Assembly (NCBI GenBank): GCA_038245905.1 | Contig: JBBRRY010000017.1 | Span: 7,793-71,792 of the forward strand | Direction of reading: 5' to 3' | Source of the DNA: Thermoanaerobaculia bacterium | GTDB taxonomy: Bacteria > Acidobacteriota > Thermoanaerobaculia > UBA5066 | DNA length: 64,000 nucleotides | In this document: one piece after another, positions 3,806 through 60,813 of the stretch | How positions within the stretch are numbered: position 1 is the first letter of the stretch | How the letters are laid out: each line of letters begins with the position of its first letter | Notes under the pieces: generated by a model | Told to the model about the DNA's origin: nothing | The model's input: only the letters and a program-made list of their open reading frames with translations | The model's database searches: none | Made by a program: the position numbers and the translations under genes

Positions 3806-4291
3806 ATGACGATGAAGATCCAGGCCATGCTCGACTGGTCTCCCGAGGAGAAGGCGGCGAAGGCGAAGGAGTGGGCCCAGTCCCTCTTCACGCTCCGTCT
3901 CCAGAAGGCCACGGGACAGCTCGAAAATCCGATGAAGATCAAGGAGCTTCGAAAAGACATCGCTCGCCTCAAGACCGCGCAGCACATGGGCGCCGTCGAG
4001 ACGGCGGCGGCGGCGGCTCACGAAGTTGCGCCCCATTCGGAGGGGACCGAAGAGAAGAGCTCTGCGAATGTGAAGAGCGCGGTGGGAACGGCGAAGCACA
4101 AGGGCCACGCGGTCGCGTCCGGCAAGGGCGCGAAGAAGCGCGCTGCGGCTGCGAAGGCGACACACAAGAAGGCGGCCGGCGCCCCTGCGAAGGCTCATTC
4201 ACCTTCTAAGAAATCTTCATCTCCGAAAGGCAAGCCCGCTGCTGCCTCGAAGAGCAAGTCCGCCCCCGCGAAGAAAAGCAAAAAGAAGTAG
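3806..4291 (+). CDS. rpmC: 50S ribosomal protein L29 with about 95 aa Ala/Lys-rich C-terminal tail
   Basis: L29 core ([28 protein letters not shown]), then a KKAA-type tail ending KKSKKK. The tail contains repeat copy A. Confidence 0.88.
4198..4224 (+). repeat. CT-rich dispersed element, copy A (in the rpmC tail, encodes SPSKKSSSP)
   Basis: TTCACCTTCTAAGAAATCTTCATCTCC. Contains the exact 11-mer CCTTCTAAGAA. Confidence 0.8.
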
Positions 4292-4307
4292 TTCGTAACA
4301 GGAAGCA

Positions 4308-4730
4308 GTGAGCACGATCATGAGCAGCACCCCGAATCCCCAGCCGACGCCGGCGGCCGGCGCGTCCGCGGCCGACCAGCCGCGGCGCACCCGCAAGATC
4401 GGGATCGTCGTCTCGAACAAGATGGAGAAGACGGTCGTCGTCGAGGTTTCGCGCACCGTCAAGCACGAGCGCTACGGCCGCTACCAGAAGAAGTCCGCGC
4501 GCTTCCTGGCGGACGACCGTGTTCTCAAGGCGCTGCCCGGCGACACGGTTCAGATCGAGGAGACGCGTCCGCTGTCGGCCCGCAAGCGCTGGCGGGTGAT
4601 CACGATCGTGACGAGGGGCCGCCAGGCGGTTTCCGACACGGCCGACGTTCCGGGCAGTGCGAAGAAGATCGCGCCGAAGTCGGTCCCCGATAAGAAGCTG
4701 GCGGGTAAGCCGGCGAAGAGGCAGTCATGA
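4308..4730 (+). CDS. rpsQ: 30S ribosomal protein S17 with N- and C-terminal extensions
   Basis: Core [42 protein letters not shown] is S17-like. GTG 4308 or ATG 4320 are both possible starts. Confidence 0.9.
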
Positions 4731-5101
4731 TCCAGATGGGGACGATTCTCGAAGTCGCCGACAACTCGGGTGCCCGCCGGCTCTTCTGCATCAAGGTGCA
4801 GGGCGGGTCGACCGGCGACTACGGCCGCATCGGCGACGTCATCACCTGCTCGGTGAAGGAGTCGAATCCCGACGCGCCGGACACGGTCAAGAAGGGCAAG
4901 GTCGTCAAAGCCGTCATCGTGCGCACGGTTCGCGAGCAGCGGCGCCGCGACGGCAGCTACATCAAGTTCGACACGAACGCCGCCGTCCTCGTCAACGCCG
5001 AAAAAGAGCCGATCGGAACCCGTGTGTTCGGGCCGGTCGCTCGTGAGCTCCGCGAGAAGAAATTCATGAAGATCATCTCGCTGGCTCCGGAAGTCATCTG
5101 A
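4727..5101 (+). CDS. rplN: 50S ribosomal protein L14
   Basis: [24 protein letters not shown] is L14-like. Confidence 0.96.
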
Positions 5102-5102
5102 C

Positions 5103-5468: not shown

Positions 5469-5475
5469 GGAGAGC

Positions 5476-6021: not shown

Positions 6022-6040
6022 CAAGTCAAGGAGCGCAGGC

Positions 6041-6226: not shown

Positions 6227-6236
6227 GGAGGGGACG

Positions 6237-6635: not shown

Positions 6636-6644
6636 GGAACGCAT

Positions 6645-7202: not shown

Positions 7203-7221
7203 GGTTAAGGAAGCAGGAACC

Positions 7222-8509: not shown

Positions 8510-8512
8510 CGC

Positions 8513-10377: not shown

Positions 10378-10381
10378 CGAC

Positions 10382-12969: not shown

Positions 12970-12975
12970 GAGGCG

Positions 12976-13025
12976 CCCCTCTTACCTTCTAAGAATTCTT
13001 CGGAATTCTTCGTCCGTAAACCGAG
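12976..13025 (+). repeat. CT-rich dispersed element, copy B (intergenic rpsK-rpsD)
   Basis: CCCCTCTTACCTTCTAAGAATTCTTCGGAATTCTTCGTCCGTAAACCGAG. Has the exact 11-mer and a perfect 10-bp tandem duplication GAATTCTTCG x2 (12993-13012). Confidence 0.85.
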
Positions 13026-15410: not shown

Positions 15411-15462
15411 GAAAGATAGAGAAGAGACTCGGATACGGATTTTCTTAAAAGGTTAAGAGGGG
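15411..15462 (-). repeat. CT-rich dispersed element, copy K (intergenic after rplQ, reverse orientation)
   Basis: Plus strand reads GAAAGATAGAGAAGAGACTCGGATACGGATTTTCTTAAAAGGTTAAGAGGGG. Its reverse complement aligns with copies B and C, including the TCCGTA/CCGAG arm. Confidence 0.75.
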
Positions 15463-15487
15463 CCCCGGTTCGCCGGGGCCTTTTTTC
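15460..15487. terminator. Intrinsic terminator closing the ribosomal protein array (possibly bidirectional)
   Basis: Perfect hairpin GGCCCCGG-TTCG-CCGGGGCC followed by TTTTTT, 58 nt after the rplQ stop and 14 nt from the end of the convergent gene. Confidence 0.8.
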
Positions 15488-15500
15488 ATGAGGGGGGCTT

Positions 15501-15893
15501 CTACCCGAGCGCTTTCTCGATCTCCTGTATGAGGACCTTCGTCGAGAAGGGTTTCGTGATGTAGCTCGACGCCCCGAGCCGGAGTCCGAGGTCGCGCTCC
15601 GACGGCAGCGTGCGCGCCGTCAGCATCACGATCGGCAGACGGGACGTGGCCGGGTTTTCCTTCAGGATGCGGCAGACGTCGAAGCCCGTGAGGCCGGGCG
15701 TGAGGGACACGTCGAGGAGCACGAGGTCGGGCGCTTCCTCGCGCACCATCCGGAGGGCCTCTTCGCCGCCGGTCGCCTCCACAGGCAGGAGTCCCGTCAG
15801 GCGGAGCTTGAAGGAGAGGATCTTCAGGATCGTCGGTTCGTCGTCCACGACCAGGATCTTTCGGCCCGCAAGGCCCGGGGGAAGGCTGCTCAT
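15501..15893 (-). CDS. Single-domain response regulator (CheY-like receiver)
   Basis: KILVVDDEPT...PDLVLLDVSL...ITKPF receiver motifs. 130 aa. Confidence 0.88.
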   Translation of the reverse strand: MSSLPPGLAGRKILVVDDEPTILKILSFKLRLTGLLPVEATGGEEALRMVREEAPDLVLLDVSLTPGLTGFDVCRILKENPATSRLPIVMLTARTLPSERDLGLRLGASSYITKPFSTKVLIQEIEKALG

Positions 15894-20201: not shown

Positions 20202-21683
20202 GTGACTCTTCGCCTTTACAACACCATGAGCCGCTCGCTCGAGGAGTTTCGTCCCGTCTACCCGGGAAAGATCGGCCTCTACACATGCGGACCCACCGTC
20301 TACAACCGGGTGCACATCGGAAACCTCAGGACATTCGTCTGGGAAGACGTGATGTGCCGCGTCTTTCGCGCCCTCGGCTACGAGACGACCCAGGTGATGA
20401 ACCTCACGGACATCGACGACAAGACGATCCGGGGCGCGTTGGCCGCCGGGCTGCCGCTGCGCGCGTTCACGGACCTTCACATCGCGACGTTCTTCGAGGA
20501 CCTGAAGACGCTCGGCGTCGAGCCGGCGGCGCTCTATCCGCGCGCCACGGAGCACATCCCCGAGATGGTCACGATCGTCCAGAAGCTCGCCGCCCGTGGG
20601 CACACGTACGAGAGCGACGGATCGGTCTGGTTCCGGATCTCGACGTTCCCGGGCTACGGAAGTCTCTCTAAGATCGACCTCACGGCCGTGAAGCGCGGCG
20701 CGCGCGTGGCCGACGACGAGTACGAGAAGGAAGATGTGCGCGACTTCGCGGTATGGAAGGGAGCGAAGGAGGGCGAGCCCGAGTCCGCGACGTGGGCCAC
20801 GGCGCTTGGCCGCGGGCGGCCCGGCTGGCACCTCGAGTGCAGCGCCATGGCGATGAAGTACCTCGGCGAAACGCTCGACATCCACACGGGCGCCGTCGAC
20901 AACATCTTCCCGCATCACGAGAACGAGATCGCGCAGAGCGAAGGCGCGACCGGGAAACCGTTCGTCCATTACTGGCTCCACGCCGAGCACCTCCTCGTGG
21001 ACGGCGAGAAGATGTCGAAGAGCAAGGGGAACTTCTACACGCTTCCCGACCTCCTCGAGAGGGGCTTCTCTCCGCGCGCGATCCGCTACCTCCTCATCTC
21101 GGTCCCGTATCGGATGAAGCTCAACTTCACCTTCGACGGCCTGAAGGCCGCGACCTCCGCGGTCGAGCGGCTGGAGTCGCTCGACCTGCGGCTCAGGGAA
21201 AGAGAGAAAGAGAAGAACAGTTCTTTGAAAGGGGAAGAGGGGGGGAGAGAGGGATTCGAGGGGCGACTGGCGGAGGCGCGGCGTGCGGTCTTTGCCGCCC
21301 TCGAGGACGACCTCAACACGGCCGGCGCTCTCGGGGCGCTGTTCTCGTTCGTCAAGGCGACCAACGTCGATCTCGAGGCGGGCCATCTGTCGGCCTCCGA
21401 CGCAACCGCGGCGCGCGGTCTTCTCCATGAAGTCGCCGGGAACGTCTTCGGAGTCATTGAAAAGACCGCAGGCGACGATGCGCCCTCTTCACCTTCTCAG
21501 AAATCTTCATCCGAATCCCCCGAATCCGATGATGCGTGGATCCTGGAGCGCATCGAGGCCCGAAAGGGGGCTAGAAAGGCCCGGGATTTCAAGGCCGCCG
21601 ACGCGATCCGCGACGAGCTCCTGGGCAAGGGAGTCATCCTCGAAGACACGCCCCAGGGCGTTCGCTGGAAGAGGAAGCCTTGA
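20202..21683 (+). CDS. cysS: Cysteine--tRNA ligase
   Basis: LYTCGPTVYNRVHIGNLR (HIGH) and KMSKSKGN (KMSKS) motifs. GTG at 20202 chosen. The C-terminal region carries repeat copies N and C. Confidence 0.93.
   Translation: MTLRLYNTMSRSLEEFRPVYPGKIGLYTCGPTVYNRVHIGNLRTFVWEDVMCRVFRALGYETTQVMNLTDIDDKTIRGALAAGLPLRAFTDLHIATFFEDLKTLGVEPAALYPRATEHIPEMVTIVQKLAARGHTYESDGSVWFRISTFPGYGSLSKIDLTAVKRGARVADDEYEKEDVRDFAVWKGAKEGEPESATWATALGRGRPGWHLECSAMAMKYLGETLDIHTGAVDNIFPHHENEIAQSEGATGKPFVHYWLHAEHLLVDGEKMSKSKGNFYTLPDLLERGFSPRAIRYLLISVPYRMKLNFTFDGLKAATSAVERLESLDLRLREREKEKNSSLKGEEGGREGFEGRLAEARRAVFAALEDDLNTAGALGALFSFVKATNVDLEAGHLSASDATAARGLLHEVAGNVFGVIEKTAGDDAPSSPSQKSSSESPESDDAWILERIEARKGARKARDFKAADAIRDELLGKGVILEDTPQGVRWKRKP
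21196..21263 (-). repeat. CT-rich dispersed element, copy N (in cysS, reverse; encodes REKEKNSSLKGEEGGREGFEG)
   Basis: GGGAAAGAGAGAAAGAGAAGAACAGTTCTTTGAAAGGGGAAGAGGGGGGGAGAGAGGGATTCGAGGGG. The core TAG is changed to TTG in the reading frame. Confidence 0.7.
21483..21527 (+). repeat. CT-rich dispersed element, copy C (in cysS; encodes PSSPSQKSSSESPES)
   Basis: CCCTCTTCACCTTCTCAGAAATCTTCATCCGAATCCCCCGAATCC. Confidence 0.8.
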
Positions 21684-21859: not shown

Positions 21860-23422
21860 TTGGTCCTCACCGCGGAGAAAACACTTCTCGTCGCGTCCCT
21901 CGCACCGGCTTCTAACGCCGAGGCTCTGGGGGGGCGCGCGGCTCTCGCCGACCTGCCTCCGTCGACGGCTGTCGAGCTGCGCCTGGATGCGATGACCGAG
22001 GCGCCTGCGTTCGGCGCGCTGCGCGCGTGCTTCGAAGGCAGAACGCTCATCGCAACCGTTCGATCCAAAGCCGAGGGCGGCGGGTTCCGGGGGAGCGAGG
22101 AGGAAGAGCGGGATTTCCTAGAAGGTGCCCTCTCTGCGGGCTTCGATCTCGCAGACGTTGAATTTCGCCGCGACCTTGGTACTCGCTTCGCCGGAATACC
22201 TCCTTCTAAGAAGATTTCTTCTCTCCACGACCCCGAAGGGGTACCAGCCGACCTCGACAGCGTCGTCTCGAGGATGCTCGCTTCCCCCTCGCGCTTCGTG
22301 AAAGTCGCGGCGACGGCAAACGATTCCGGCGACGCCCGCCGCCTTCTCGAGCTTCAGGCCGCGAACCCAGGGGGGCGCCTCACCGTATTCGGCATGGGCG
22401 AGGCCGGGATCGCCACGCGCGTCCTCTCGCCCTATCTCGGCGCGGCGCTCGCGTACGGGGCGCTCGTCCCCGGGCGCGCCACGGCACCCGGCCAGCTTCT
22501 TGCGCGCGACCTCAACGAGATCTACGGCGTCGGCTGCGCGCGGAGCGTCTCGCGGCTCTTCGGGATCCTGGGCGGCGTCGTCTCGCACTCCCTCTCTCCC
22601 GCTCTCCACAACGCGAATTTCGAGGCTCTCGAAGAGGACGCGCTCTACGTCCCGTTTGCGATGCGGATGCTCGGGAGGGAGCTCGAGCCCCTCGTCGCCT
22701 CCCTCGACGCGCTCGGCCTTCCTCTCGGGGGCGTCTCGGTGACGATCCCGTTCAAGGAAGAGGCCGCGCTCCTTTCGGGCGCGGCCGAGGGCGGCGAGAG
22801 GGCGGTCAACACGCTCCTGAGGTCGAGCGCCCCGGGCCTGCCGCTCCAGTGGCGCGCGGAAAACACCGACCGTGCGGCATTCGAGGCCGTGATTGAAGAT
22901 GCTTCCGAGAGAGGGAGAACCGAGACGAGCGCGAATGCGCGGGTGGCGATCGTCCTCGGGGCTGGTGGTACGGCACGGGTTGCCGTGGATGTTCTCCGAA
23001 AAAGGGGATTCGGAGTCTTTCTGGTGAACCGAGGCGAGGAGCGTGGCGAGGCGCTTGCGGCTGCCACGGGCGCCCATTACCTTTCTAATAAATCCTCGGC
23101 GCCGTGGCCCGAGGCTGGAGTCATCGTCAACGCGACGGCCCTCGGGCTTCTCCCGGGGGATCCTCTTCCCTGCGAGCAAAATATTCTCCGCCCCGGGATG
23201 CTCGTGATCGACGCGCCGTATCGCGCCGGCGGAACAGAGCTCGTCCGGGCGGCGCGCGCAGCGGGCGCGCGCGTCGTAGACGGCCAGACACTGCTCCTGC
23301 TTCAGGCCGCGGGCCAGGCAACGCTCTTCACCGGGCGGCAGACGAGCCCGCGGGATCTGCTCTCGCGTCTCGCGCCGCGCCTTCGCTCCCTGTTTTCGTC
23401 CTTCGAGGAGTTTTCTCCTTGA
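21860..23422 (+). CDS. aroDE: Bifunctional 3-dehydroquinate dehydratase (type I) / shikimate dehydrogenase
   Basis: N-terminal AVELRLD and SSLHD motifs resemble type I DHQase. C-terminal VSHSLSPALHNANF and NATALGL motifs resemble AroE. TTG start. Confidence 0.82.
   Translation: MVLTAEKTLLVASLAPASNAEALGGRAALADLPPSTAVELRLDAMTEAPAFGALRACFEGRTLIATVRSKAEGGGFRGSEEEERDFLEGALSAGFDLADVEFRRDLGTRFAGIPPSKKISSLHDPEGVPADLDSVVSRMLASPSRFVKVAATANDSGDARRLLELQAANPGGRLTVFGMGEAGIATRVLSPYLGAALAYGALVPGRATAPGQLLARDLNEIYGVGCARSVSRLFGILGGVVSHSLSPALHNANFEALEEDALYVPFAMRMLGRELEPLVASLDALGLPLGGVSVTIPFKEEAALLSGAAEGGERAVNTLLRSSAPGLPLQWRAENTDRAAFEAVIEDASERGRTETSANARVAIVLGAGGTARVAVDVLRKRGFGVFLVNRGEERGEALAAATGAHYLSNKSSAPWPEAGVIVNATALGLLPGDPLPCEQNILRPGMLVIDAPYRAGGTELVRAARAAGARVVDGQTLLLLQAAGQATLFTGRQTSPRDLLSRLAPRLRSLFSSFEEFSP
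22097..22134 (-). repeat. CT-rich dispersed element, copy P (in aroDE, reverse; encodes EEEERDFLEGALS)
   Basis: GAGGAGGAAGAGCGGGATTTCCTAGAAGGTGCCCTCTC. Confidence 0.6.
22191..22226 (+). repeat. CT-rich dispersed element, copy D (in aroDE; encodes GIPPSKKISSL)
   Basis: CCGGAATACCTCCTTCTAAGAAGATTTCTTCTCTCC. Contains the exact 11-mer. Confidence 0.8.
23075..23097 (+). repeat. CT-rich dispersed element, copy E (in aroDE; encodes HYLSNKSS), degenerate
   Basis: CATTACCTTTCTAATAAATCCTC. Confidence 0.55.
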
Positions 23423-25050
23423 AGATCGAGCGGCCCGACCCGAACCTGCCGCGAGGCGTGCAGGCATTTCTCTTCGACGCGGCCGAGCGCCGCCGGAAGG
23501 CGGAAGACTCGGTCGTGCGACGGCTTCAGGAGGCCGGTCTGCGTGAGGTGATTCTCCCCGTCCTGGATTTCGCGGCCCCCTATGCCGGCGTGACGGCCGA
23601 GGGAGACGATCGCCTTTATCGGTTCCTCGACCGGCAGGGGAATACTCTGGCGCTTCGGGCGGACTTCACGCCGATGGCGGCGCGCGTCGTGGCGCCACGG
23701 CTCAGCGCGCTCTCCGGAGCCGTCTCCCTCTTCTACCGCGGAGACGTCGTGCGCGACGAGGAGACTGGTGTCGGGCGCCGGCGCGAGTTCGCGCAGGTCG
23801 GCGCAGAGCGTTACGGCGATGGCCGCCCGGAGGCCGACGGCGAAATGCTCGCGCTGGCTCTCTCCTGCCTCGGAGATCTTCCGGCCGAGCGCCTCAGGCT
23901 CACCCTCGGCTGGTCGGGCCTCCTGGAACGCCTGCTCGCCATACTCGCCCCGGGACTCGAAGTGAACGGCGCGTCCGAACTCGCCGTTGCCTTGTCGGCC
24001 GCGCGCGCGCGGCACATCACGGAGCTGGAGACGCGGCTTTCGACCGCGGGCGCCGCGCCGGCCGTCGCTGCGGAAGCCGCCCGGGCCCTCCTCGTCGGCT
24101 TCGACCCCTCTTCCGATCTCTTCCACTCGACTGCCCTTGCGGGCGCGGCCGCGGAGCTCGCGCGCGCGGTCGCAATTGCGAGGGCCGCCCGGCCCGGTCT
24201 CTCGGTCGTCGTCGACCTTGCCGACACTCCCCAGGCCCCCTATTACACGGGGCTCACGTTCAGCGTGGACGCCGCGAGCGGGGGCGGCACGATTGCCGGA
24301 GGCGGACGGTACGACGGCCTCCTCGGGCGTTTCGGCACGGCGGCGCCCGCGCTCGGCTTCTGTATCGGCCTCGAGGCTCTCGGTGCTGCCGCCGATGTAA
24401 CCGAGAGAGACGCGCGCCCTCTCCGAATCGCGGTCGGGAAGGGCCGGCTCCTGCCGCAGGCGCTCGAGGCGCTCGACGCCGGAGGCGCCTCGTTCGGCGA
24501 GCCGGACGGCCGGCGCCTTCTCGTGCTTTCCTCGGACGGCGCGTTCGAGCTGCTTCTCCTCAAGGACGACGACGTCCCGACCTACGTGGCTCACGGTGGC
24601 GCCGACCTCGGGATCGTGGGGAGCGACCGCGTCCTCGAGAGCGGCGAGGACGTGACCTCCCCCGTGGAGCTTCCGTTCGGCGCCTGCCGCCTCTCCCTCA
24701 TCGGGCGGGCGGGGGAGCCGTTCCGCCCGAACGGCGCGCCCGTTCGCGTGGGAACGAAGTACCGCCGCCTCGCGGCCCGCTATTTCGATGAGCGGAAGAT
24801 CGCCCATGAGATCGTCCCGCTCGCGGGTTCGGTCGAGCTCGCTGCCGCGCTCGGGCTCACGGACGTCGTCGTGGACCTCATCGAATCTGGCTCCACGATG
24901 GCCGCGAACGGTCTCGCCGAGATCGAGACCATCCTCACGAGCCGCGCGACCCTCGTCCTCGGGCGTTCCGCGCTCATCGCCCGCCGGGCCGAGATCGCGG
25001 AGTTCGTCCAGCGCCTCAGGGCTCATGCGGGCAAGGCGCTGACTTCATGA
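23419..25050 (+). CDS. hisZG: Fusion of ATP phosphoribosyltransferase regulatory subunit (HisZ) and short-form catalytic subunit (HisG)
   Basis: First about 330 aa are HisRS-like/HisZ (LRADFTPMAARV, YYTGLTFSV, GGGRYDGLLGRFG). Last about 210 aa are HisG (LRIAVGKGRL...DLIESGSTMAANGL). One uninterrupted ORF. TTGA overlap with the aroDE stop. Confidence 0.8.
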   Translation: MKIERPDPNLPRGVQAFLFDAAERRRKAEDSVVRRLQEAGLREVILPVLDFAAPYAGVTAEGDDRLYRFLDRQGNTLALRADFTPMAARVVAPRLSALSGAVSLFYRGDVVRDEETGVGRRREFAQVGAERYGDGRPEADGEMLALALSCLGDLPAERLRLTLGWSGLLERLLAILAPGLEVNGASELAVALSAARARHITELETRLSTAGAAPAVAAEAARALLVGFDPSSDLFHSTALAGAAAELARAVAIARAARPGLSVVVDLADTPQAPYYTGLTFSVDAASGGGTIAGGGRYDGLLGRFGTAAPALGFCIGLEALGAAADVTERDARPLRIAVGKGRLLPQALEALDAGGASFGEPDGRRLLVLSSDGAFELLLLKDDDVPTYVAHGGADLGIVGSDRVLESGEDVTSPVELPFGACRLSLIGRAGEPFRPNGAPVRVGTKYRRLAARYFDERKIAHEIVPLAGSVELAAALGLTDVVVDLIESGSTMAANGLAEIETILTSRATLVLGRSALIARRAEIAEFVQRLRAHAGKALTS

Positions 25051-26357
25051 TGAAGATCGTCGACGCGGATACGCTTGCGGGCAAGAAGGAGCTGGAGCGG
25101 TTGCTAAAGAGCCGCCGGGGAGCCGCTCCTGACTTCGCGACGCTGAAGCAGGTCCTGCCGATCGTGGAGGATGTTCTGCGAAGAGGGGAGCCTGCGCTCC
25201 GGAAATACGTGAAGTGCTTCGACCCGTTGCGCGGCGCCCCTTCTTACCCTTCTAAGAAGCTCTTGATCACTCCCCGACGTGAGGAGTCTTCTCGGGTGGA
25301 TCCGGCGTTTCAGGCGGCGTTTGTCTTCGCCCGCAAGCGCATCGAGGCTTATCACCGCAAGCAGCTCTCGTCCGTCTCGCCGGGTTTCTCCTTCAAGGAC
25401 TCTCTCGGCGTCTCCTTCGTGGAGAGGCCCACGCCGTTCGATTCGGTGGGCGTCTATGTGCCCGGGGGCCGCGCCTTCTATCCGTCCTCGCTTCTCATGG
25501 GGGTCGTGCCCGCGCGCGTCGCGGGCGTCAGGCGAGTCGTCGTCGCGACGCCGCGCGGGGCGTGGGCGTCGAGCCCCGAGCTCCGGTGGGCGGCGGCCGA
25601 GCTGGGAGTCGACGAGGTGCTCCTCGCGGGAGGGGCCCACGGTATCGCCGGCCTCGTGTCCGTCGCGGGCGTCGCGAAGATCGTCGGCCCCGGGAACCGG
25701 TTCGTCGCGGCGGCGAAGCACCTCGTCTCGGGCCTCGTGGCGGTGGACATGCCGGCAGGGCCTTCGGAAGTCGCAATCCTCGCGTCGGCCGATGCGGACC
25801 CGGCGCTCGTGGCGGCGGATCTTCTCGCGCAAGCGGAGCACGATCCCGACGCAAAGTGCTTGCTGTTTACGAGCTCGAGAAGGCTGGCGGACGCCGTTCG
25901 ATGCGCGGCGCTCTCGCAGATGGATGCCTTCGAAGAGGATTCTTCTTTGATGGTGATGAGAGCGGCCTTGCGCCGCGGTGGGCGGATCTTTCTATTCAAA
26001 GAAATCTCCCGCGCCGCGTCGGCCTGCGCTGCCGTGTTCGCGGAGCACGTTCAGGTCATGGGCCGGTCTGTCGAGCGCTCGGCGGGTTCTCTCTTTCCCG
26101 CTGCCGGAACCTTGTTCATTGGCCCGTCGACGCCGACCGCGCTCGGGGACTACGTCCTCGGCCCGAATCACGTACTGCCCACAGGCGGTGCCGCGCGCAG
26201 CTTCTCGGGTCTCTCGGTGCGCGACTTCCTGCGCTGGGGGCGATCGGTCTCGGCCCCCGTGAAGGCGGCCCGCCGCCTCGCGCCCGCGGCAGCGGTCCTG
26301 GCGCGATTCGAAGGTCTCGTCGCCCACGCGAGCGCGCTCGACCGGAGAGTCCGGTGA
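25047..26357 (+). CDS. hisD: Histidinol dehydrogenase
   Basis: KIVGPGNRFVAAAK, DMPAGPSEV, LLAQAEHD and GPNHVLPTGG motifs. Confidence 0.94.
   Translation: MMKIVDADTLAGKKELERLLKSRRGAAPDFATLKQVLPIVEDVLRRGEPALRKYVKCFDPLRGAPSYPSKKLLITPRREESSRVDPAFQAAFVFARKRIEAYHRKQLSSVSPGFSFKDSLGVSFVERPTPFDSVGVYVPGGRAFYPSSLLMGVVPARVAGVRRVVVATPRGAWASSPELRWAAAELGVDEVLLAGGAHGIAGLVSVAGVAKIVGPGNRFVAAAKHLVSGLVAVDMPAGPSEVAILASADADPALVAADLLAQAEHDPDAKCLLFTSSRRLADAVRCAALSQMDAFEEDSSLMVMRAALRRGGRIFLFKEISRAASACAAVFAEHVQVMGRSVERSAGSLFPAAGTLFIGPSTPTALGDYVLGPNHVLPTGGAARSFSGLSVRDFLRWGRSVSAPVKAARRLAPAAAVLARFEGLVAHASALDRRVR
25237..25275 (+). repeat. CT-rich dispersed element, copy F (in hisD; encodes PSYPSKKLLITP)
   Basis: CCCCTTCTTACCCTTCTAAGAAGCTCTTGATCACTCCCC. 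Contains the exact 11-mer. Confidence 0.8.
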
Positions 26358-27421
26358 CCGGCCGGCCCATCCCGGTCCGCGAGGAGATCCGGTCGCTCAG
26401 GGCCTATCGCCTCGAGTCCGAGGACGCCCCCCCTCTCCGAGCGAAGCTGGACTTCAACGAGTCGCCGTTCGACGTGCCCGAGGAAATCCGCGCGGAGGTC
26501 CTCGCGCGCCTCGCGGCGAAGAGATGGGGCCGCTACCCCGAGTTCGGCGCGCCGCGTCTGAAGAGGGCGGTCGCCGAGGCGATTGGCCGGCGGCCCGAAG
26601 AGATCGTGGTCGGCAACGGGTCTGGTGAGGTCCTTCTCGCGGCGGTCTCCGTCTTCGCGGGGGGCGGCTCTCTCGTCCTTCCGACGCCCACGTTCTCGCT
26701 CTACGGACAGATCGCGGCGATCGCGGCGGCCCGCGTCGTGGACGTGCCGCGCACGGGGCCGGATTTCGAGCTCGTCGAGGACGCATTTCTCGCCGCGGTG
26801 TCCCGGCCGCACGCCGTTCCTCTCGTCTGCTCGCCGAACAACCCGACGGGCGGCGTCGTACGGCGGGAATTCCTGGAGAGGCTGCTCACGGCCGCGCCCG
26901 TCGTGCTCCTCGATCAGGCCTACGTGGATTTCGCGGGGCCCGGCGACGACGGCCTCTCGCTCCTCGATGCCTATCCGAACCTCGTCGTCTTCCGGACGCT
27001 CTCGAAGGCGTACGCGGCCGCGGGCTTCCGGATCGGGTACGCAGTCGCGCCGCCGGAGCTCGCGCGGGAGATCGAGAAGGCCGTCCTGCCGTTCAGCGTC
27101 GACCTCGCGGCCGAGGAGTTGGCGGTCGCCGTCCTCGGGCGTCCAGAGGTTGCGCGGGCCCACCTGGGCAAGATCGTGGCCGAGAGGTTGCGCGTGGCCG
27201 CGGCGCTCACGGCGGCCGGCTGCCTCGTGGCTTCGTCGTCCGCAAATTTTCTCTTCGTGCGTCCGCCGGGCGGCCAGGCGGAGCCGGTCCGCCGGGCGCT
27301 TCTCGACAGGGGAATCCTCGTGCGCGAAATGACCGCGGCGGCGCCCGGGCGCCTCCGTGTTTCGATCGGATCCCGTGAGGAGAACGATCTTTTCCTCGAA
27401 GCGCTTCGGGAGGTGTTATGA
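26354..27421 (+). CDS. hisC: Histidinol-phosphate aminotransferase
   Basis: GTG at 26354 in-frame within track ORF 25562..27421. CSPNNPTG and FRTLSKAYAAAGFRIGY (PLP lysine) motifs. Confidence 0.92.
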   Translation: MTGRPIPVREEIRSLRAYRLESEDAPPLRAKLDFNESPFDVPEEIRAEVLARLAAKRWGRYPEFGAPRLKRAVAEAIGRRPEEIVVGNGSGEVLLAAVSVFAGGGSLVLPTPTFSLYGQIAAIAAARVVDVPRTGPDFELVEDAFLAAVSRPHAVPLVCSPNNPTGGVVRREFLERLLTAAPVVLLDQAYVDFAGPGDDGLSLLDAYPNLVVFRTLSKAYAAAGFRIGYAVAPPELAREIEKAVLPFSVDLAAEELAVAVLGRPEVARAHLGKIVAERLRVAAALTAAGCLVASSSANFLFVRPPGGQAEPVRRALLDRGILVREMTAAAPGRLRVSIGSREENDLFLEALREVL

Positions 27422-33828: not shown

Positions 33829-33878
33829 GAGGAGTAAGAGGGAGAGAAATTTCTTAGAAAGGGTAAGAGGAAGAGGGG
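33826..33878 (-). repeat. CT-rich dispersed element, copy M (fills the trpD-trpC intergenic gap, reverse; supplies the trpC SD sequence)
   Basis: TAAGAGGAGTAAGAGGGAGAGAAATTTCTTAGAAAGGGTAAGAGGAAGAGGGG, immediately followed by the trpC ATG at 33879. Confidence 0.8.
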
Positions 33879-44286: not shown

Positions 44287-45777
44287 ATGTCACGGTTTGC
44301 TCGGTCTCTCGTCGGCGCGGCTGTCGGTTTTCTTCTCGCTCTCGCCCCGGCCGCCGAGGGCGCCAGGAAACCTGCGAGGCCGGCGCCGCCCCAGACCCTC
44401 GAGCAGCGGTTGAACGCCTTGCTGCGCAGGGGCCCCGTCAGGCGCTCCGAGATCGGCGTCGTCGTCACACGACTGGGCGAGGCAGCGCCTCTCGCTTCCC
44501 TGAACCCCCAGCGGTCTCTCATCCTCGCCTCCACGACGAAGCTTTTCACGACCGCCGCCGCCCTCGACCGCCTCGGGCCCGAGTACAAGTTCAGGACGCG
44601 CCTCTATCGCGACGCGGACGTCGGCGAGGACGGCGTCCTGCCCGGTCACCTCGTCGTCATGGGAGGCGGCGATCCGGGAATCTCCGGCCGCTGGTACGAC
44701 GACGATCCCCTGGCCGTGTTTCGGCCGTGGGCGGCGTCCCTCGCGAAGAAAGGTCTTCGCAGCGTTCGGGACGGGCTGCTTCTCGACGTTTCATTCTTCG
44801 ACGACGTTCAGACTCATCCCGACTGGCCGAGCGAGCAGGAGCAACGGTGGTACCAGGCTCCCGTTTCGGCGCTCTCCTACAACGACAACATCGTCCTCGT
44901 GCGCGCGTCGGGAGGCCTTCGCCCAGGGAGCCCGGCTCTCCTCGGATTCGATCCTCTCGGGCCGCCTCTCCTGAATCTCATCTCGAACGTCGTCACCGCC
45001 TCGCGAAAGACGTGGGTCGGCGTGCGCCGCGAGGCCGGCAGCCACACCGTCGTGGCGGCGGGGCGCGTCGGCCGGAACCGGACGTGGGTCGGCGACGTGA
45101 CGGTGCCCGACCCGCCGCTCTATTTCGCCGCGGCCCTCTCTCAGGTCCTCCGTGAAGCCGGCATCCGGATCGACGCCCCGCCCACCGTGAGGACGGAACC
45201 GGGCACCCCGCTTCCGATCTCGGGTCGCGTGCTCCTCCATACTCATGAGACGCCGCTCCTCTCCGCGATCGCCGTGTGCAATAAGCGCTCGCAATCCCTC
45301 TTCGCCGAAGAGATCCTCAAGACGCTCGGCGCCGAGAAGCGTGGCCGTGGAACGTGGGAGAACGGCCGGGCCGAGGTCGCGGCGTTCCTGACCTCGCTCG
45401 GTCTCGACGCTTCGCGCTACCAGCTCGCCGACGGGTCCGGGCGCGCGCATTCCAACCGCGCCTCCGCGGCCGCGTACGTGGATTTCCTCACGGCGCTCGC
45501 GTCGCGCTGGAAACACTTCGAGACGTTCAAGGGCACGATGGCGGTATCGGGTGCACCCGACGGGACGTTGCGTCATCGCCTGCAGGGCGACGCGACGATC
45601 GGCAAGGTGTGGGCGAAAACGGGGAACGTGTCGGGTGTCGTGACGCTGTGCGGCTACGTGCAGGCCCAGAGCGGCCAGACGTACGCCTTCAGCATTCTCC
45701 TGAACGGCGGCGCCCGTGACGTCCGCGGCCACGCGTTCCAGGACCGTCTCGTGAGCGAGCTGGCTAAATTCGGCTAG
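44287..45777 (+). CDS. dacB: D-alanyl-D-alanine carboxypeptidase/endopeptidase (PBP4, peptidase S13)
   Basis: Signal peptide, ASTTKLFT (SxxK), SNR and KTGNVSG (KTG) motifs. Confidence 0.88.
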   Translation: MSRFARSLVGAAVGFLLALAPAAEGARKPARPAPPQTLEQRLNALLRRGPVRRSEIGVVVTRLGEAAPLASLNPQRSLILASTTKLFTTAAALDRLGPEYKFRTRLYRDADVGEDGVLPGHLVVMGGGDPGISGRWYDDDPLAVFRPWAASLAKKGLRSVRDGLLLDVSFFDDVQTHPDWPSEQEQRWYQAPVSALSYNDNIVLVRASGGLRPGSPALLGFDPLGPPLLNLISNVVTASRKTWVGVRREAGSHTVVAAGRVGRNRTWVGDVTVPDPPLYFAAALSQVLREAGIRIDAPPTVRTEPGTPLPISGRVLLHTHETPLLSAIAVCNKRSQSLFAEEILKTLGAEKRGRGTWENGRAEVAAFLTSLGLDASRYQLADGSGRAHSNRASAAAYVDFLTALASRWKHFETFKGTMAVSGAPDGTLRHRLQGDATIGKVWAKTGNVSGVVTLCGYVQAQSGQTYAFSILLNGGARDVRGHAFQDRLVSELAKFG

Positions 45778-46651
45778 CGCGCGACGTTCGGAACAGCGCA
45801 ATCTGCGTTTTCGTTCCCTTGGCTCTATACATTGCCGTATCGGCATTCTTGAAGAGAACGTCCGCCGTTCTTCCATCGGCGGGATAGACGGCAATGCCGA
45901 TACTGGCTCTTATCGAAAGCGTGGTCCCCTTCAACTCGCAGGCTTCGGCGATCCGAGACTGCATCTTCTGTGCAAGCCGCGTCACCACGGCGTCCTGCTT
46001 GACCTCGAGCAACAGACAGACGAATTCGTCGCCTCCCCAGCGACTGACCATGTCTTCCGCGCGGACGGAAGACCGTAAACGGTTCGCCACCATCAACAGC
46101 ACCTGGTCTCCCAGATCATGGCCATGAGAGTCGTTGATTTTCTTGAAGTCATCGATATCGATGAACAGGACCGCGAGCTTCCAGCCGTGCCGTTTTGCCT
46201 GGATCAACCCATGGTCGAGGCGCTGCTCGAATGACACGCGGTTCGGAAGGCCGGTGAGCGCGTCCTGAAGCGCGAGTTGTTGCGCTTCTTCCTCCTTGAG
46301 CTGGGATTTCGACAGATCGTCCCGCACGTCGGCCAGGTCGGTCTTCGTGTCCGCGAGCTCGGATTCGATGACGATTCGCTCAGCGACTTCTCTGGCGAGC
46401 TGGGCGTTGACCAGCTTCAAATCGTCCGCGGCTTTCGCTACCTTGTGTTCGACATCCTCGTTCTCGGCGAGAAGATGTTTGATGGTCTGAACAGGGACGT
46501 TGTCCTGCCGGAGGATTTCATTAACCGATGTGAGTTCAGTGGCCGCCTCCTTGACGGTGTCCTTGATCTTCTCGTTCTTCTTGAGCACGCCTCCAAGCGA
46601 AGCTCTCCTGGCGGACGCGTGTGGTTTCAGCCCTTTTGATCTTGACTTCAT
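45764..46651 (-). CDS. Diguanylate cyclase (coiled-coil + GGDEF); gene is visibly lower in GC than its neighbours
   Basis: RWGGDEFVCLL and FKKINDSHGHDLGD motifs. ATG at 46651 has a GGAGA SD sequence. The track ORF starts at GTG 46669. Confidence 0.85.
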   Translation of the reverse strand: MKSRSKGLKPHASARRASLGGVLKKNEKIKDTVKEAATELTSVNEILRQDNVPVQTIKHLLAENEDVEHKVAKAADDLKLVNAQLAREVAERIVIESELADTKTDLADVRDDLSKSQLKEEEAQQLALQDALTGLPNRVSFEQRLDHGLIQAKRHGWKLAVLFIDIDDFKKINDSHGHDLGDQVLLMVANRLRSSVRAEDMVSRWGGDEFVCLLLEVKQDAVVTRLAQKMQSRIAEACELKGTTLSIRASIGIAVYPADGRTADVLFKNADTAMYRAKGTKTQIALFRTSRASRI

Positions 46652-48933: not shown

Positions 48934-49551
48934 GTGCCCTCTCGCCGACCGCTCCCCGCCACCTTTTTCCGCCGCGACACCGAGGTCATCGCGCGTGATC
49001 TCCTGGGCTGCCGGCTCACGCGGCGGCTGCCCGACGGCACCACGCGATCCGTGATCCTGGTCGAAACGGAGGCCTATCTCGGCGTGAAGGACCGCGCGGC
49101 GCACACGTGGAACGGCCGTCGTACCGCCCGCGTCGAGCCGATGTGGGGGGCGGGCGGCCACGCGTACGTCTATTTCGTCTACGGGATGCACTTCTGCATG
49201 AACGTCGTAGCGGGCGAAGAAGGGATTCCGGAGGCGGTCTTGCTGAGAGCGGGGATTCCGGAGGGAGAAGAGAAGGTTTCTTTGAAGGTGAATAGGGGAG
49301 GGGAGGCGTCCGGGCCCGCGAAGCTGTGCGCCTATCTGGGCGTGACCACCGCGCTGTCCGGCGCCTCGCTCTCCGGCCCCGAGCTGGTCCTCTCGCGCGG
49401 GCCGCGTCGGCGGTTCTCGATCGTCGCCGGGCCGCGCGTGGGCGTGGACTACGCGGGGGAGGCCGCGGCGTGGCCGCTGCGCTTCGCGATGGCCGGGTGC
49501 AAGGCCGTGACGAAGCCCAAGGGGCTCCGTCCTTTCCGTGTCATCGCATGA
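48934..49551 (+). CDS. DNA-3-methyladenine glycosylase (MPG/AAG family)
   Basis: FFRRDTEVIARDLLG, ETEAYLG and YFVYGMHFCMNVV motifs. GTG at 48934 has a GGAGGA SD sequence 5 nt upstream; ATG 48916 is also possible. Contains repeat copy O. Confidence 0.85.
   Translation: MPSRRPLPATFFRRDTEVIARDLLGCRLTRRLPDGTTRSVILVETEAYLGVKDRAAHTWNGRRTARVEPMWGAGGHAYVYFVYGMHFCMNVVAGEEGIPEAVLLRAGIPEGEEKVSLKVNRGGEASGPAKLCAYLGVTTALSGASLSGPELVLSRGPRRRFSIVAGPRVGVDYAGEAAAWPLRFAMAGCKAVTKPKGLRPFRVIA
49251..49306 (-). repeat. CT-rich dispersed element, copy O (in the MPG glycosylase gene, reverse; encodes GIPEGEEKVSLKVNRGGE)
   Basis: GGGGATTCCGGAGGGAGAAGAGAAGGTTTCTTTGAAGGTGAATAGGGGAGGGGAGG. The core TAG is changed to TTG in the reading frame. 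Confidence 0.7.
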
Positions 49552-56321: not shown

Positions 56322-56343
56322 TCGGGCGAGGACCGGCAGGACC

Positions 56344-58392: not shown

Positions 58393-58477
58393 TGGAGGCA
58401 GTGTACCGCCGGCGCGGTACAATAAGACTTGTTAGCGCCTGCCGCTCAAGCGCCGACCGGGTTCCGGCTCGCCTTCC

Positions 58478-59857
58478 ATGAAACAACCAGCTTCTCTCCC
58501 GTCCGTCGGCATCGTGTCGCTCGGATGCCCCAAGAACCTCGTCGACACCGAGGTGATGCTCGGCCATCTCCAGCGCGAGGGCATGACGCTGGCCGACCCC
58601 GAGAAATCGCGCGTCGTCATCGTGAACACCTGCGGCTTCATCGACGCGGCCAAGGAGGAGTCCGTCGGCGCAATCCTCCGCGAGGTGGCGCGCAAGGAAG
58701 CCGGGGAGATCGACCGCGTCGTCGTCGCCGGCTGCATGGTGCAGAAGTACGGCCGGGAGCTCGCGGCCGAGATCCCCGAGGTGGACCACTTCATCGGCCT
58801 CGACGAGCTGGAGAAGGCGCCCGCGGCGGCCCTCGGCCTCCCGTCGCTCCCGCGTTTCAGCGACAAACCCCTCGCGACCCGGCTCTACGACGACCTCTCT
58901 CCGCGCGTCCTCACACACCGTAAGGGCTACGCCTATCTGAAGGTCGCCGAGGGCTGCAACAACCCATGCACGTTCTGCACGATTCCGCAGATGCGCGGCC
59001 TCATGCGCTCGCGCACGATCGCGTCGCTCGTGAAAGAAGCGCAGAGCCTCGAGGCGCAGGGCGTCCGGGAGCTCGTCCTGATCTCGCAGGACACGACCCG
59101 CTACGGCGAGGACCTCGGACTCGGCCGGACGGGCCTCGCCGATCTCGTGAAGGCGCTTCTTGCCGAGACGGGCTTCCCCTGGGTGCGCTTCCTGTACGCC
59201 TACCCGAAGACGCTCCACCGGGGCGTCTTCCAGCTCATGGCGAGAGAGCCGCGTTTCGTCCCGTACGTCGACATGCCGCTCCAGCATGTCTCCCGGAAGA
59301 TCCTCACGAAGATGAAGAGGGGAGGCGACGGCGCGAGCTATCTGAAGCAATTCGAAGAAATCCGAAAACTCGTCCCCGAGATTTCCCTCCGCTCGACCTT
59401 CATCGTGGGCTTCCCGGGCGAAGAGGAGAAGGATTTCATAGAAGTGGAAGAGTTTCTCAAGGCCGTCCGCTTCGACAACGCGGGAGTCTTCACGTACTCC
59501 CCCGAACCGGGATCCGGTGCGGAATCGCTCGGGGACCCTCTTCCACTCGAAGAAAAATCTTCACGCCGCGACCGTTTGATGGAGGTCCAGCAGAAGATCT
59601 CTCTATCGAAGAACCGCGCGAAGCGCGGCAAGATCTTCGACGCCCTGCTCGAAGGCCCCAGCGAGGAAACGGAGATGCTCCTCGAGGCGCGCCTCGCCGG
59701 GCAGGCCCCCGAGATCGACGGGCGCGTGCTGATCAACGACGTCCCCTCCGGCTGGGCGCCGCGCGTCGGCGAGATCGTGCGTGTGAAGATCACCGAGGCG
59801 CACGCCTACGACCTCGTCGGGCGGGTCGTAGCGCCCGTCGCTTCCACCGTCGCTTAA
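58478..59857 (+). CDS. rimO: Ribosomal protein S12 methylthiotransferase RimO
   Basis: VSLGCPKNLVDTE, radical-SAM CNNPCTFC, and a TRAM-like C-terminus. Confidence 0.9.
   Translation: MKQPASLPSVGIVSLGCPKNLVDTEVMLGHLQREGMTLADPEKSRVVIVNTCGFIDAAKEESVGAILREVARKEAGEIDRVVVAGCMVQKYGRELAAEIPEVDHFIGLDELEKAPAAALGLPSLPRFSDKPLATRLYDDLSPRVLTHRKGYAYLKVAEGCNNPCTFCTIPQMRGLMRSRTIASLVKEAQSLEAQGVRELVLISQDTTRYGEDLGLGRTGLADLVKALLAETGFPWVRFLYAYPKTLHRGVFQLMAREPRFVPYVDMPLQHVSRKILTKMKRGGDGASYLKQFEEIRKLVPEISLRSTFIVGFPGEEEKDFIEVEEFLKAVRFDNAGVFTYSPEPGSGAESLGDPLPLEEKSSRRDRLMEVQQKISLSKNRAKRGKIFDALLEGPSEETEMLLEARLAGQAPEIDGRVLINDVPSGWAPRVGEIVRVKITEAHAYDLVGRVVAPVASTVA
59536..59567 (+). repeat. CT-rich dispersed element, copy S (in rimO; encodes DPLPLEEKSSRR)
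   Basis: CCCTCTTCCACTCGAAGAAAAATCTTCACGCC. The core TAA is changed to GAA in the reading frame. Confidence 0.6.
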
Positions 59858-59868
59858 GATCCGTCCGC

Positions 59869-60813
59869 TTGCAGGTCGTCAAGGATCCCTTTCGCGCCGT
59901 CGACCTTCCGCGAGGCGGCGTCGTCACCGTCGGAAACTTCGACGGCGTACATCGCGGTCATCAGGCGATGCTGAAGGCCGTCTCGGCCCGCGCCCGGGAG
60001 CTCGGCGCGCCGAGCGTCGTCGTGAGCTTCGACCCGCATCCGCTGAAGGTTCTGCACCCCGAGCGCGCCCCGAAGATGATCCAGACGCTCAGGCAGCGCG
60101 AGGAGGCGATCGAGGCCTCGGGTATCGACGCGCTCGTCCTCGTGCCCTTCACACGGGACTTCTCTCTGATGCCCGCCGAGGCCTTCATCAAGGAGCTCCT
60201 CGTGAAGCGGCTCGCGGTGCTCGAAGTGCACGTGGGCGCGCGTTTCATTTTTGGAAGAGACCGCCTCGGATCCCTGGACCTCCTCCGCGCGGCCGGCGAG
60301 GCCGCGGGATTCCGCGTGGCCGGTCTCGCGGACGTGAGCGACCCGGGCGGCGCCATTTCGTCGACGCGCATCCGAAACGCCCTCCTCGAGGGAGACGCCG
60401 CGACGGCGCGGGAGCTGCTCGGGCGTCCCTACGCGATGGACGGAATCATCGCGAAGGGGGACCGGATGGGCCGCAAGATCGGATTTCCGACGATGAATCT
60501 CAAGCCCGACAACGAGCTCTATCCGAAGGACGGTGTCTACTTCACCTCCGTCCGGATCGCGTCGTTCGAGCGGACCTTTGCCTGCGTGACGAACATCGGG
60601 TGCCGGCCCACGGTGTACGAGGACTACGCGACGACCATCGAGTCGTACATTCTCGATTTTTCGTCGGACGTCTATGGCGAGCGCGTGCGTTTGTCGTTCT
60701 ACGGCCGCGTTCGTGACGAGCAGACGTTTCCGTCCATGCTCGACCTCACGGCCCAGATCCGGCGGGACGTGGACGCGACGCGCCTCTATTTTCTAGGGAA
60801 TCCGCTGCCATGA
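59869..60813 (+). CDS. ribF: Bifunctional riboflavin kinase / FMN adenylyltransferase
   Basis: VTVGNFDGVHRGHQ and GFPTMNL motifs. TTG at 59869 is the only plausible in-frame start. Confidence 0.88.
   Translation: MQVVKDPFRAVDLPRGGVVTVGNFDGVHRGHQAMLKAVSARARELGAPSVVVSFDPHPLKVLHPERAPKMIQTLRQREEAIEASGIDALVLVPFTRDFSLMPAEAFIKELLVKRLAVLEVHVGARFIFGRDRLGSLDLLRAAGEAAGFRVAGLADVSDPGGAISSTRIRNALLEGDAATARELLGRPYAMDGIIAKGDRMGRKIGFPTMNLKPDNELYPKDGVYFTSVRIASFERTFACVTNIGCRPTVYEDYATTIESYILDFSSDVYGERVRLSFYGRVRDEQTFPSMLDLTAQIRRDVDATRLYFLGNPLP
60783..60805 (+). repeat. CT-rich dispersed element, copy V (3' end of ribF), degenerate
   Basis: CCTCTATTTTCTAGGGAATCCGC. Confidence 0.45.

Follow-up and report, generated by a model that had tools for sequence, protein, structure and literature searches.

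Dispersed DNA signals, such as the uptake signal sequences and DNA uptake sequences (USS/DUS), Chi sites, repetitive extragenic palindromic (REP) sequences and HIP1, are among the few cases in which a genome-wide process overrides codon choice, and each of the known ones has revealed dedicated machinery. In this study, we analysed a 64,000-nt stretch of DNA from a Thermoanaerobaculia bacterium (GCA_038245905.1, contig JBBRRY010000017.1, positions 7,793–71,792; hereafter the window), which holds about 20 related low-GC patches; they fall on either strand and in every reading frame. Each patch is an arm of ~26 nt, and about half of the arms lie in inward-facing inverted pairs, in which a purine-rich arm, written (−), is followed by a spacer of 20–250 nt, often native coding sequence, and then by a pyrimidine-rich arm, written (+). 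A preliminary description of the window had likened the copies to mobile mini-elements inserted in frame into protein genes. We found instead that they are the two arms of inverted pairs, an arrangement absent from that description, and mostly not insertions. Our tentative reading, to which we give a probability of roughly 0.4, is a clade-wide DNA recognition signal that was built in place and is read by a putative lineage-specific trans-acting factor.

USS/DUS reportedly combine a short core with a weaker flank consensus and occur hundreds of times, on either strand and in any frame; they are also said to arise by substitution in tolerant segments, to be conserved at orthologous positions, to be enriched outside genes and to form inverted pairs after genes. 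Rickettsia palindromic elements (RPEs) are said to be contiguous insertions of 100–150 bp relative to homologues. HIP1 (GCGATCGC) of cyanobacteria is over-represented in coding and non-coding DNA and conserved between species, and a trans-acting enzyme is suspected. Correia elements, which are MITEs (miniature inverted-repeat transposable elements) of Neisseria, have inverted arms of ~26 nt, are co-transcribed and form RNA hairpins. REPINs are defined as doublets of short repeats in inverted arrangement (PMC3337134, PMC3116915).

The arms resemble USS/DUS in their short, over-represented core with longer and weaker flanks, their occurrence on both strands and in all frames, their origin by substitution, their conservation at orthologous positions among relatives, their enrichment outside genes and their frequent inverted pairing; this likeness is one of sequence behaviour. 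They differ in that half of them form inward-facing pairs up to ~290 nt apart, even inside genes, and in being AT-rich in a GC-rich genome and clustered in one operon array. An uptake signal would be expected at a roughly even genome-wide density near 1 per kb. Like HIP1, the arms are written in place in coding and non-coding DNA, but HIP1, a perfect palindrome of 8 bp, has neither long flanks nor a paired arrangement. With REPs and REPINs they share a fixed inverted doublet whose spacer lies in a potential hairpin, singlets beside doublets, a vertical and long-lived history, the lack of a linked transposase per copy and a frequent position just after stop codons. Unlike these extragenic repeats, ~72% of the arms are genic and in frame, their spacer is unconserved and can be native coding sequence, no replicative turnover was seen, and a single arm is not a hairpin and lacks the GTAG/CGTC tag; no REP-associated tyrosine transposase was found in the sequences scanned, although no genome-wide search for one was made. 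The arms are like RPEs in being translated in frame at tolerant positions of essential proteins, in sharing sites between species and in having no known transposase, and the hisD unit of relatives and a minimal unit within an RNase R-like open reading frame (ORF) have this look; a contiguous insertion is found only at hisD in relatives and at a cysS arm (cysS_b). Correia elements differ in that they are genuinely inserted between genes, duplicate a TA target and have a conserved interior. As in MITEs, terminal inverted repeats have a fixed orientation of the outer ends (118 versus 5 and 28 versus 0 in the two counts given below), but no direct repeats were seen at the unit ends by inspection and none of 176 arms is lineage-specific. 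The feature thus departs from RPEs, MITEs and REPs/REPINs in at least one defining property each. Its evolutionary behaviour seems closest to that of USS/DUS or HIP1, because the arms are substitutions inside codons, occur in every frame, are stable at orthologous sites, are enriched where constraint is low and belong to one clade; its layout looks closest to that of REP doublets.

A DNA-level motif in every reading frame

We scanned the window for the 11-mer CCTTCTAAGAA, exactly and with up to one mismatch, and estimated the chance level from dinucleotide-preserving shuffles. Six exact sites were found against 0.01 expected, at 4202, 12985, 22202, 25248 and 29014 on the plus strand and 28940 on the minus strand, exactly as had been listed before, and 12 sites with at most one mismatch against 0.27. 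A profile built from 11 window copies gave 11 strong arms and ~8 weak ones, the latter including the weaker patches that had been mentioned in passing, and a looser scan made 21 calls, two of which are opposite-strand re-calls of one site. In all, about 20 related arms lie in the window; ~18 dispersed copies in both orientations had been counted before. The GC content of the window is 64–73% per 1-kb bin, except for one bin of 0.60, and 30-base windows of at most 43% GC recover the motif patches. The arms are AT-rich within a background of 68–70% GC. On the G-poor strand an arm approximates CCCyyTTCA-CCTTCTAAGAA-AwYYTY. Information in the arm logo spans about −9 to +16 around the core, one strand is nearly G-free over ~40 nt, and TTCTnAGAA is the sole micro-palindrome. 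A flank, TCCGTA..CCGAG, had been described as common to the three intergenic copies; it is present downstream of the core in two of them (B and K) and missing from the third (M).

The arms draw on the rarest codons of the genome, with 0.2–6% usage elsewhere, which bears out the earlier remark on rare codons. TTA makes up 0.2% of Leu codons outside the arms, TCT occurs 72.7 times per 1000 codons inside arm zones versus 3.4 outside, and third codon positions in this genome are about 90% G or C, as deduced from the codon table. Genic arms occupy three sense and three antisense frames and encode unrelated peptides. Because all six frame and orientation classes are represented, the patches are a DNA-level motif rather than convergent coding, as first proposed. 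In frames where the consensus reads TAA or TAG, core position 5 is not T in 27 of 39 arms, compared with 17 of 97 in the remaining frames (Fisher p = 2e-8), and one base change, TAA to AAA or TAG to TTG, accounts for the variants in trpE, the methylpurine-DNA glycosylase (MPG) gene and cysS. Selection for an open reading frame thus edits the single core position that would otherwise give a stop codon.

Inverted pairs, in-place origin and descent

Relatives were collected with a HisA-anchored scan that kept one genome per species and yielded 30 loci (L001–L030; HisA identity 58–86%) from Acidobacteriota, mostly Thermoanaerobaculia metagenome-assembled genomes (MAGs); about 25 of these are Thermoanaerobaculia MAGs whose arms were compared, and 10 unrelated loci of the same scan (L031–L040) served as the outgroup. 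An exact look-up of the window's own HisD gave no record. A 17-base AT-rich pattern matched at least 120 metagenome contigs, and 69 among the matches listed exceed 62% GC. Pair geometry was counted in 1.15 Mb, made up of the window, the 30 clade loci and the 69 high-GC metagenome loci, with a core-plus-composition scan; iterative nhmmer lost sensitivity on so short a motif.

Among neighbouring arms 20–450 nt apart, 118 are arranged as (−,+), 16 as (−,−), 12 as (+,+) and only 5 as (+,−), and a profile search of the metagenome loci alone gave 28, 3, 4 and 0, respectively. The (−,+) arrangement reads alike from either strand. A pair unit consists of GAAGATTTCTTAGAAGGTGAAGAGGGG, a spacer and CCCCTCTTCACCTTCTAAGAAATCTTC; GGCGCC is frequent at its inner ends, and outside it often lie microsatellite-like tracts of purines or pyrimidines. 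Core-to-core spacing in independent pairs is 58–287 nt, with 11 of 38 at 69–79 nt. Each pair can close a stem of 20–25 bp; the hisA unit has a minimum free energy of −59.2 kcal/mol, compared with −43.1 ± 4.3 kcal/mol in shuffled sequence (z = −3.7), and z is between −2 and −4 for several metagenome units. Pair-specific complementarity is absent by both ungapped identity and duplex energy: arms bind their own partner at −36.1 kcal/mol and non-partners at −37.9 kcal/mol (n = 38, p = 0.11). Very few compensatory changes appeared when 27 hisA pairs were examined with RNAalifold, and one-sided changes were wobble-compatible in 15 cases versus 7 broken; the aroD pair of L019 shows a double compensatory change, TTAG to CTGG with CTAA to CCAG in the partner. 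With so few compensatory changes and with partners no better matched than strangers, selection on the stem alone is insufficient to account for the conservation of the arms. Nested pairs of the form (−)(−)(+)(+), apparently within one gene, were seen in three metagenome contigs (L115, 2420–2761; L090, 945–1134; L053, 8075–8276).

Nor do the arms follow transcription. Unpaired genic arms are sense in 15 cases and antisense in 16, arm positions within genes are broadly spread, and the outer and inner neighbours of intergenic arms are starts and stops in even numbers (21, 20, 21 and 19); eleven of the 20 stop-facing arms have their outer end 17–28 nt away from the stop. Rho loading, anti-Shine–Dalgarno mimicry and translational pausing at domain boundaries, the roles floated in the preliminary description, predict a bias towards one transcribed strand or towards certain positions in the gene. 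With neither seen, we reject them as the primary constraint, and the lack of strand bias argues for recognition at the DNA level. Further candidates were rejected as well: a promoter role for outward-facing arms upstream of starts, given the even start and stop neighbours and a logo without sigma-70-like spacing on inspection; a Chi-like signal, given the length of the motif and the absence of strand skew in the window (7 on the plus and 5 on the minus strand); a likeness to the 3′ end of 16S rRNA, which would call for gaps; and CodY-, Lrp- or Fis-like sites, given that the hosts extend beyond amino-acid metabolism and that the half-site spacing of these regulators, as we assume it to be, does not fit the arm motif.

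The arms of the window are as follows, with gene boundaries taken from a codon log-odds caller and hosts identified by Pfam or PDB matches.

4193–4225 (+; core 4202–4212): unpaired arm in rpmC (L29), encoding PSKKSSS in a Lys/Ala-rich C-terminal extension.
12971–13016 (+; core 12985–12995): arm B, intergenic between rpsK and rpsD, seen by exact core, profile and gene calls.
15428–15466 (−; core 15442–15452): arm K, intergenic between the convergent rplQ and response-regulator genes.
21196–21258 (−): left arm in cysS (cysS_a), purine-rich, encoding SLKGEEGG with the stop-avoiding TAG to TTG change; length-neutral against structure 8qhp.
21479–21523 (+; core 21492–21502): right arm in cysS (cysS_b), pyrimidine-rich, encoding PSSPSQKSSS.
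22089–22128 (−; core 22115–22125): left arm in aroD, encoding RDFLEGA; length-neutral against the Arabidopsis dehydroquinate dehydratase–shikimate dehydrogenase structure.
22190–22232 (+; core 22202–22212): right arm in aroD, encoding PPSKKISSLH; length-neutral.
23069–23100 (+): weak arm in the aroE domain, TTACCTTTCTAATAAATCC, with 1–3 mismatches in relatives.
25235–25275 (+; core 25248–25258): arm in hisD (hisD_a), encoding YPSKKLLI; exact core.
25927–26011: degenerate pair in hisD, (−) arm at ~25933–25964 and (+) arm at ~25995–26011.
28927–28963 (−; core 28940–28950): left arm in hisA, encoding EDFLEGVS with a TTA Leu codon; exact core.
29004–29044 (+; core 29014–29024): right arm in hisA, encoding HLLRKSSSS; exact core.
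31376–31408 (+): unpaired arm in trpE, within a variable linker, with the stop-avoiding TAA to AAA change and no net length.
33826–33886 (−; core 33851–33861): arm M at the trpD–trpC junction, left arm of the trpC pair.
34049–34097 (+): degenerate right arm in the N-terminal region of trpC, upstream of the Pfam IGPS match.
34839–35083: pair in trpCF that lies downstream of the TrpC–TrpF junction, within the TrpF (PRAI) half.
49257–49297 (−): unpaired arm, antisense within the MPG gene, SLKVNRGGE, a stop-avoiding variant.
59410–59457 (−): weak patch in a RimO-like radical-SAM gene, with 2 core mismatches; membership uncertain.
60778–60805 (+): weak patch, GCGCCTCTATTTTCTAGGGAATCC, at the 3′ end of ribF; membership uncertain.

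Three copies are intergenic, as had been stated: B and K by the gene calls, and M, which fills the trpD–trpC gap at 33829–33878. The others lie in ORFs that stay open, encode the peptides already noted and fall where essential proteins tolerate change, and the gene names assigned to the hosts were upheld (L29, CysS, AroD–AroE, HisD, HisA, TrpE, TrpC–TrpF, MPG glycosylase, a radical-SAM/TRAM RimO-like protein and RibF). Arm density in the window is 0.33 per kb and uneven, with ~15 arms at 21.2–35.1 kb, in agreement with the clustering first described.

Whether the arms were inserted or substituted was judged by comparing the lengths of arm-bearing window proteins with those of solved homologues. 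Seven window arms are length-neutral against PDB homologues, among them aroD(−), aroD(+), cysS_a, hisA(−) (+1 residue against solved PriA/HisA structures), trpE and trpCF(+) (+2 aa against E. coli TrpCF, near length-neutral), and most window arms overwrite existing codons without changing protein length. The aroD pair flanks the native FDLADVEF motif, its (+) arm encodes the conserved K-x-I-x-S-S-x-H strand of dehydroquinase, and the hisA pair can close its stem round the native beta4 coding segment. Arms on either side of native sequence cannot result from one contiguous mobile insertion, and the RPE-type reading therefore fails for most copies. Insertion does occur at a few sites. The homologue alignments once proposed as a check gave replacement for most arms and insertion at cysS_b and in the hisD unit. 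cysS_b is a 9-aa insertion relative to the CysS structure 8qhp and is missing in L001 and L007. At the hisD_a site, many relatives carry an in-frame unit of ~135 nt made up of a (−) arm, a GC-rich spacer and a (+) arm; the window retains the (+) arm only, and L001 and L019 carry nothing there.

No mobile partner was detected. Transposases are absent from the 28 non-obvious window ORFs scanned, as the preliminary description had said of the window, and from between wide arm pairs, where the ORFs encode LptE, a nitrilase-family protein, glycosyltransferases, ALAD and DnaB. No autonomous element with the same ends was found in the ~1.15 Mb searched, which does not include complete genomes, and plasmid sequences gave no motif match. 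The 29 matches in viral sequences all lie on contigs of 27–56% GC, none above 62% GC, and are chance matches. One such viral contig (L166, GC 0.27) carries four tandem exact pattern matches at 1060–1478 within a coding repeat rich in Lys, Ser, Asp and Glu, a chance and unrelated case. The whole window has no Rfam match at gathering thresholds, with two unrelated sub-threshold matches within 20.5–35.5 kb, and we found no description of such a motif in the literature on Acidobacteriota.

The arms belong to one clade of uncultured soil bacteria, the Thermoanaerobaculia. Exact cores number 80 in the clade loci and 0 in the outgroup loci, and segment alignments place the hisA, aroD, cysS, hisD, trpE and trpC arms at identical orthologous positions in ~25 genomes. 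In a matrix of 12 sites by 30 genomes, most cells have 0–2 core mismatches, whereas random 151-nt segments mostly have 4–6. Essentially all of the 176 arms with at most one mismatch are common to most comparable genomes, and for none of them is there an empty site next to an insertion confined to one lineage. This stability and the length-neutral copies do not support the in-frame mobile insertion first proposed. Flank variants specific to a site are kept across genomes (AAGAAAATC at hisA, AAGAAATC at cysS_b and ATCTCTTC at aroD); each site therefore descended vertically, without homogenisation across the genome. At the hisA sites, the distant relatives L027 and L030 use ordinary GC-rich codons over about the same length, and the aroD(+) arm is retained in 8 genomes whose aroD(−) partner has decayed. 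Third-position pairwise identity reaches 0.74–0.77 in the hisA(−), hisA(+) and cysS_b arms versus 0.56–0.62 in the flanks, and the survival of AT-rich rare codons is a clearer signal of constraint than this identity. Nearly all arms have decayed towards GC-richer sequence in some lineages (L008, L020, L022 and L025, at all sites), and L019 has decayed versions too, as at its aroD pair. These five and L001 are arm-poor, whereas the genomes of L028, L011 and L012 are arm-rich.

In the metagenome set, 107 of 149 arms (~72%) are genic and 42 are intergenic, with non-coding DNA making up 7% of the sequence; 17 of 21 arms are genic in the window. The host ORFs on the 69 high-GC contigs have no match among the window proteins. 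Judged by eye from ORF translations, they look like ABC-F ATPases, RNase R, DnaX and an Lhr-like helicase, among others, with the FLEG and PSKKSSS peptides again present.

What may maintain the arms

The same sequence at many unrelated sites, the lack of strand bias and partners that are no better matched than others make a trans-acting factor working at the DNA level the most likely agent, and we infer both its existence and its way of maintaining the motif. Such a factor would recognise arms at the DNA level, probably in the form of an inward-facing pair or of a folded single-strand hairpin. Its sequence preference would maintain the motif, either because the host uses the sites or because they arise anew through a biased process (preferential DNA uptake or repair, for example). 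The arms themselves have descended vertically at fixed positions and have stayed AT-rich. A bolder version, which we consider doubtful, is a genome-wide tag, an asymmetric motif of ~26 nt in inward pairs bracketing 60–300 bp and kept by a dedicated trans-acting machine; the candidates would be the first DNA-uptake or self-recognition signal outside Proteobacteria, or a protein that binds DNA or hairpins in a pair-specific way and so marks segments to be recombined or repaired.

Several observations sit badly with an in-place recognition signal. A trans-acting factor was not found, and no genome-wide search for one was made. The near-absence of (+,−) pairs lacks an explanation, and a pure uptake-signal model does not predict strong (−,+) pairing. 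There is ~1 arm per kb in the aro-his-trp array versus ~0.1 per kb elsewhere in the window, and a uniform genome-wide drive is not obviously the source of such clustering. Genuine insertions exist, namely the 9 aa of cysS_b, the 135-nt hisD unit in relatives and, judged by eye, the minimal unit inside the RNase R-like ORF, so the family may still have had a mobile origin. The nucleotide constraint on the arms is moderate: third-position identity is 0.56–0.65 at the aroD(+), hisD_a and trpE arms, not above the flanks. Concerted loss of arms by whole genomes is weakly supported (chi-square 35.05, 22 df, p = 0.038), and the genome-wide copy number is an extrapolation from 1.15 Mb of selected loci.

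The alternatives account for parts of this picture. The arms could be relics of an ancient non-autonomous palindromic element of the RPE, MITE or REPIN kind, an in-frame unit of ~100–135 nt that is now immobile, is tolerated in loops and has left solo arms by internal deletion. Terminal inverted repeats would give the fixed (−,+) order, nested pairs look like an element within an element, spacings cluster at 69–79 nt (11 of 38 independent pairs), the hisD unit is present, partial or absent depending on the genome, cysS_b is a clean indel, arms are enriched 4–5 times in the 7% of sequence that is non-coding, and GGCGCC is conserved at the inner arm ends. We nevertheless hold this origin to be unlikely. 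Length is unchanged by most window arms, native and conserved coding sequence lies between the arms of the aroD and hisA pairs, and the aroD(+) arm encodes a conserved strand of the catalytic domain; functionless copies would be expected to drift to GC-rich codons at this divergence, none of the 176 arms is lineage-specific, and no target duplications, transposase, plasmid copies or viral copies were found. Moreover, random loss of single arms from two units predicts all four arrangements rather than 118 versus 5. That same count bears on a composition artefact, in which there is no element and low-complexity linkers rich in Ser, Lys and Glu look alike in DNA through their amino-acid and codon composition. 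The peptides are indeed of low complexity and lie in variable regions, and the TCTTCC tracts are microsatellite-like; still, the orientation rule has no protein-level cause, and the same 11-mer in all six frame and orientation classes with unrelated peptides, the intergenic copies, the chance expectation of 0.01 and the use of the rarest codons refute this explanation, leaving it next to no probability.

Stems in the mRNA offer another host function. Long operons without intergenic space, such as the aro-his-trp array with its 4-nt gene overlaps, could carry cis-acting RNA stems for processing, stability or polarity, working by RNase III-type cleavage, by blocking 3′-exonucleases or by masking C-rich Rho-loading tracts, like the intergenic REPs, bacterial interspersed mosaic elements and Correia hairpins. 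The stems of 20–25 bp with z of −3.7 at hisA and −2 to −4 in metagenome units, the mostly wobble-compatible one-sided changes at hisA (15 versus 7 broken), the double compensatory change in L019, the outer ends 17–28 nt from stop codons in 11 of 20 cases and the ribosome-binding region of trpC borne by arm M are in keeping with this function. We find it improbable nonetheless as the main constraint, since a stem does not demand one sequence at all sites, own partners are no better complements than non-partners, compensatory changes are very few, and a (+,−) pair would form the same stem yet is nearly absent. Unpaired arms also persist without a partner and without sense or antisense bias, the AU-rich stem base without a U-tract would make a poor intrinsic terminator, and Rfam gave no match.

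If a factor of the kind proposed for the recognition signal exists, it would open a first way into the biology of DNA uptake, repair or mobile elements in this lineage. The motif overwrites conserved his, trp, aro and cysS codons in an uncultured high-GC class of Acidobacteriota, and its strict pairing rule is accounted for by no described family. In practice, the motif can serve as a sharp taxonomic marker for binning, and the FLEG and PSKKSSS peptides flag replaceable positions in conserved enzymes.

Site details and neighbouring genes

The rpmC arm is the top profile match (E = 1.3e-6) and has the exact core. Its ORF (3806–4291) encodes 161 aa, of which residues 12–60 form the Pfam L29 domain, and the arm at 4202 lies in a Lys/Ala-rich C-terminal extension of ~100 aa. 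The inner end of arm B, GGCGCCCCTCTTA, adjoins the rpsK stop codon, and the palindrome AAGAATTCTTCGGAATTCTT lies within the arm. Next to arm K, the response-regulator gene has a Pfam Response_reg match at 15501–15893. Fused directly to arm K at its inner end is a GC hairpin, GGCCCCGG-TTCG-CCGGGGCC, followed by T6 (~15463–15490), which looks like an intrinsic terminator after rplQ. In the degenerate hisD pair, the (−) arm is present in 22 of 26 relatives and the (+) arm in ~6 of 26, with unchanged length.

Downstream of the hisA(+) arm is a microsatellite-like TCTTCC/TCTTCG tract (29035–29050 in the window) of 0–70 nt, which encodes poly-Ser and differs in length by species (L002, L005, L009, L011, L017, L021 and others). 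A second AT-rich patch in hisA (28831–28886), GAAGAAATACTTTCTGTTTCGGA, is unlike the arm consensus, is kept in ~15 relatives (L001–L018) and adds ~6 aa relative to solved HisA/PriA structures; a similar palindrome, AAGAATTCTT, is found in copy B, and the patch may be a related second motif. The purine-rich inner end of arm M, AAGAGGAAGAGGGG, abuts the trpC ATG at 33879 and would act as the ribosome-binding region of trpC, which the partner arm, 170 nt inside trpC, could mask by pairing. The trpCF pair consists of a weak (−) arm at ~34839–34872 and a (+) arm at 35022–35083.

The aro-his-trp array (21860–37418) is very compact, and the stop and start of adjacent genes mostly overlap by 4 nt. Its aroD–aroE and trpC–trpF genes are fused according to PDB or Pfam matches, and ORF sizes suggest a hisF–hisIE fusion. 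Farther downstream, a GGDEF diguanylate cyclase gene (45764–46588) coincides with the kilobase of lowest GC in the window (0.60 versus ~0.68) and is free of arms; it may be a more recent acquisition.

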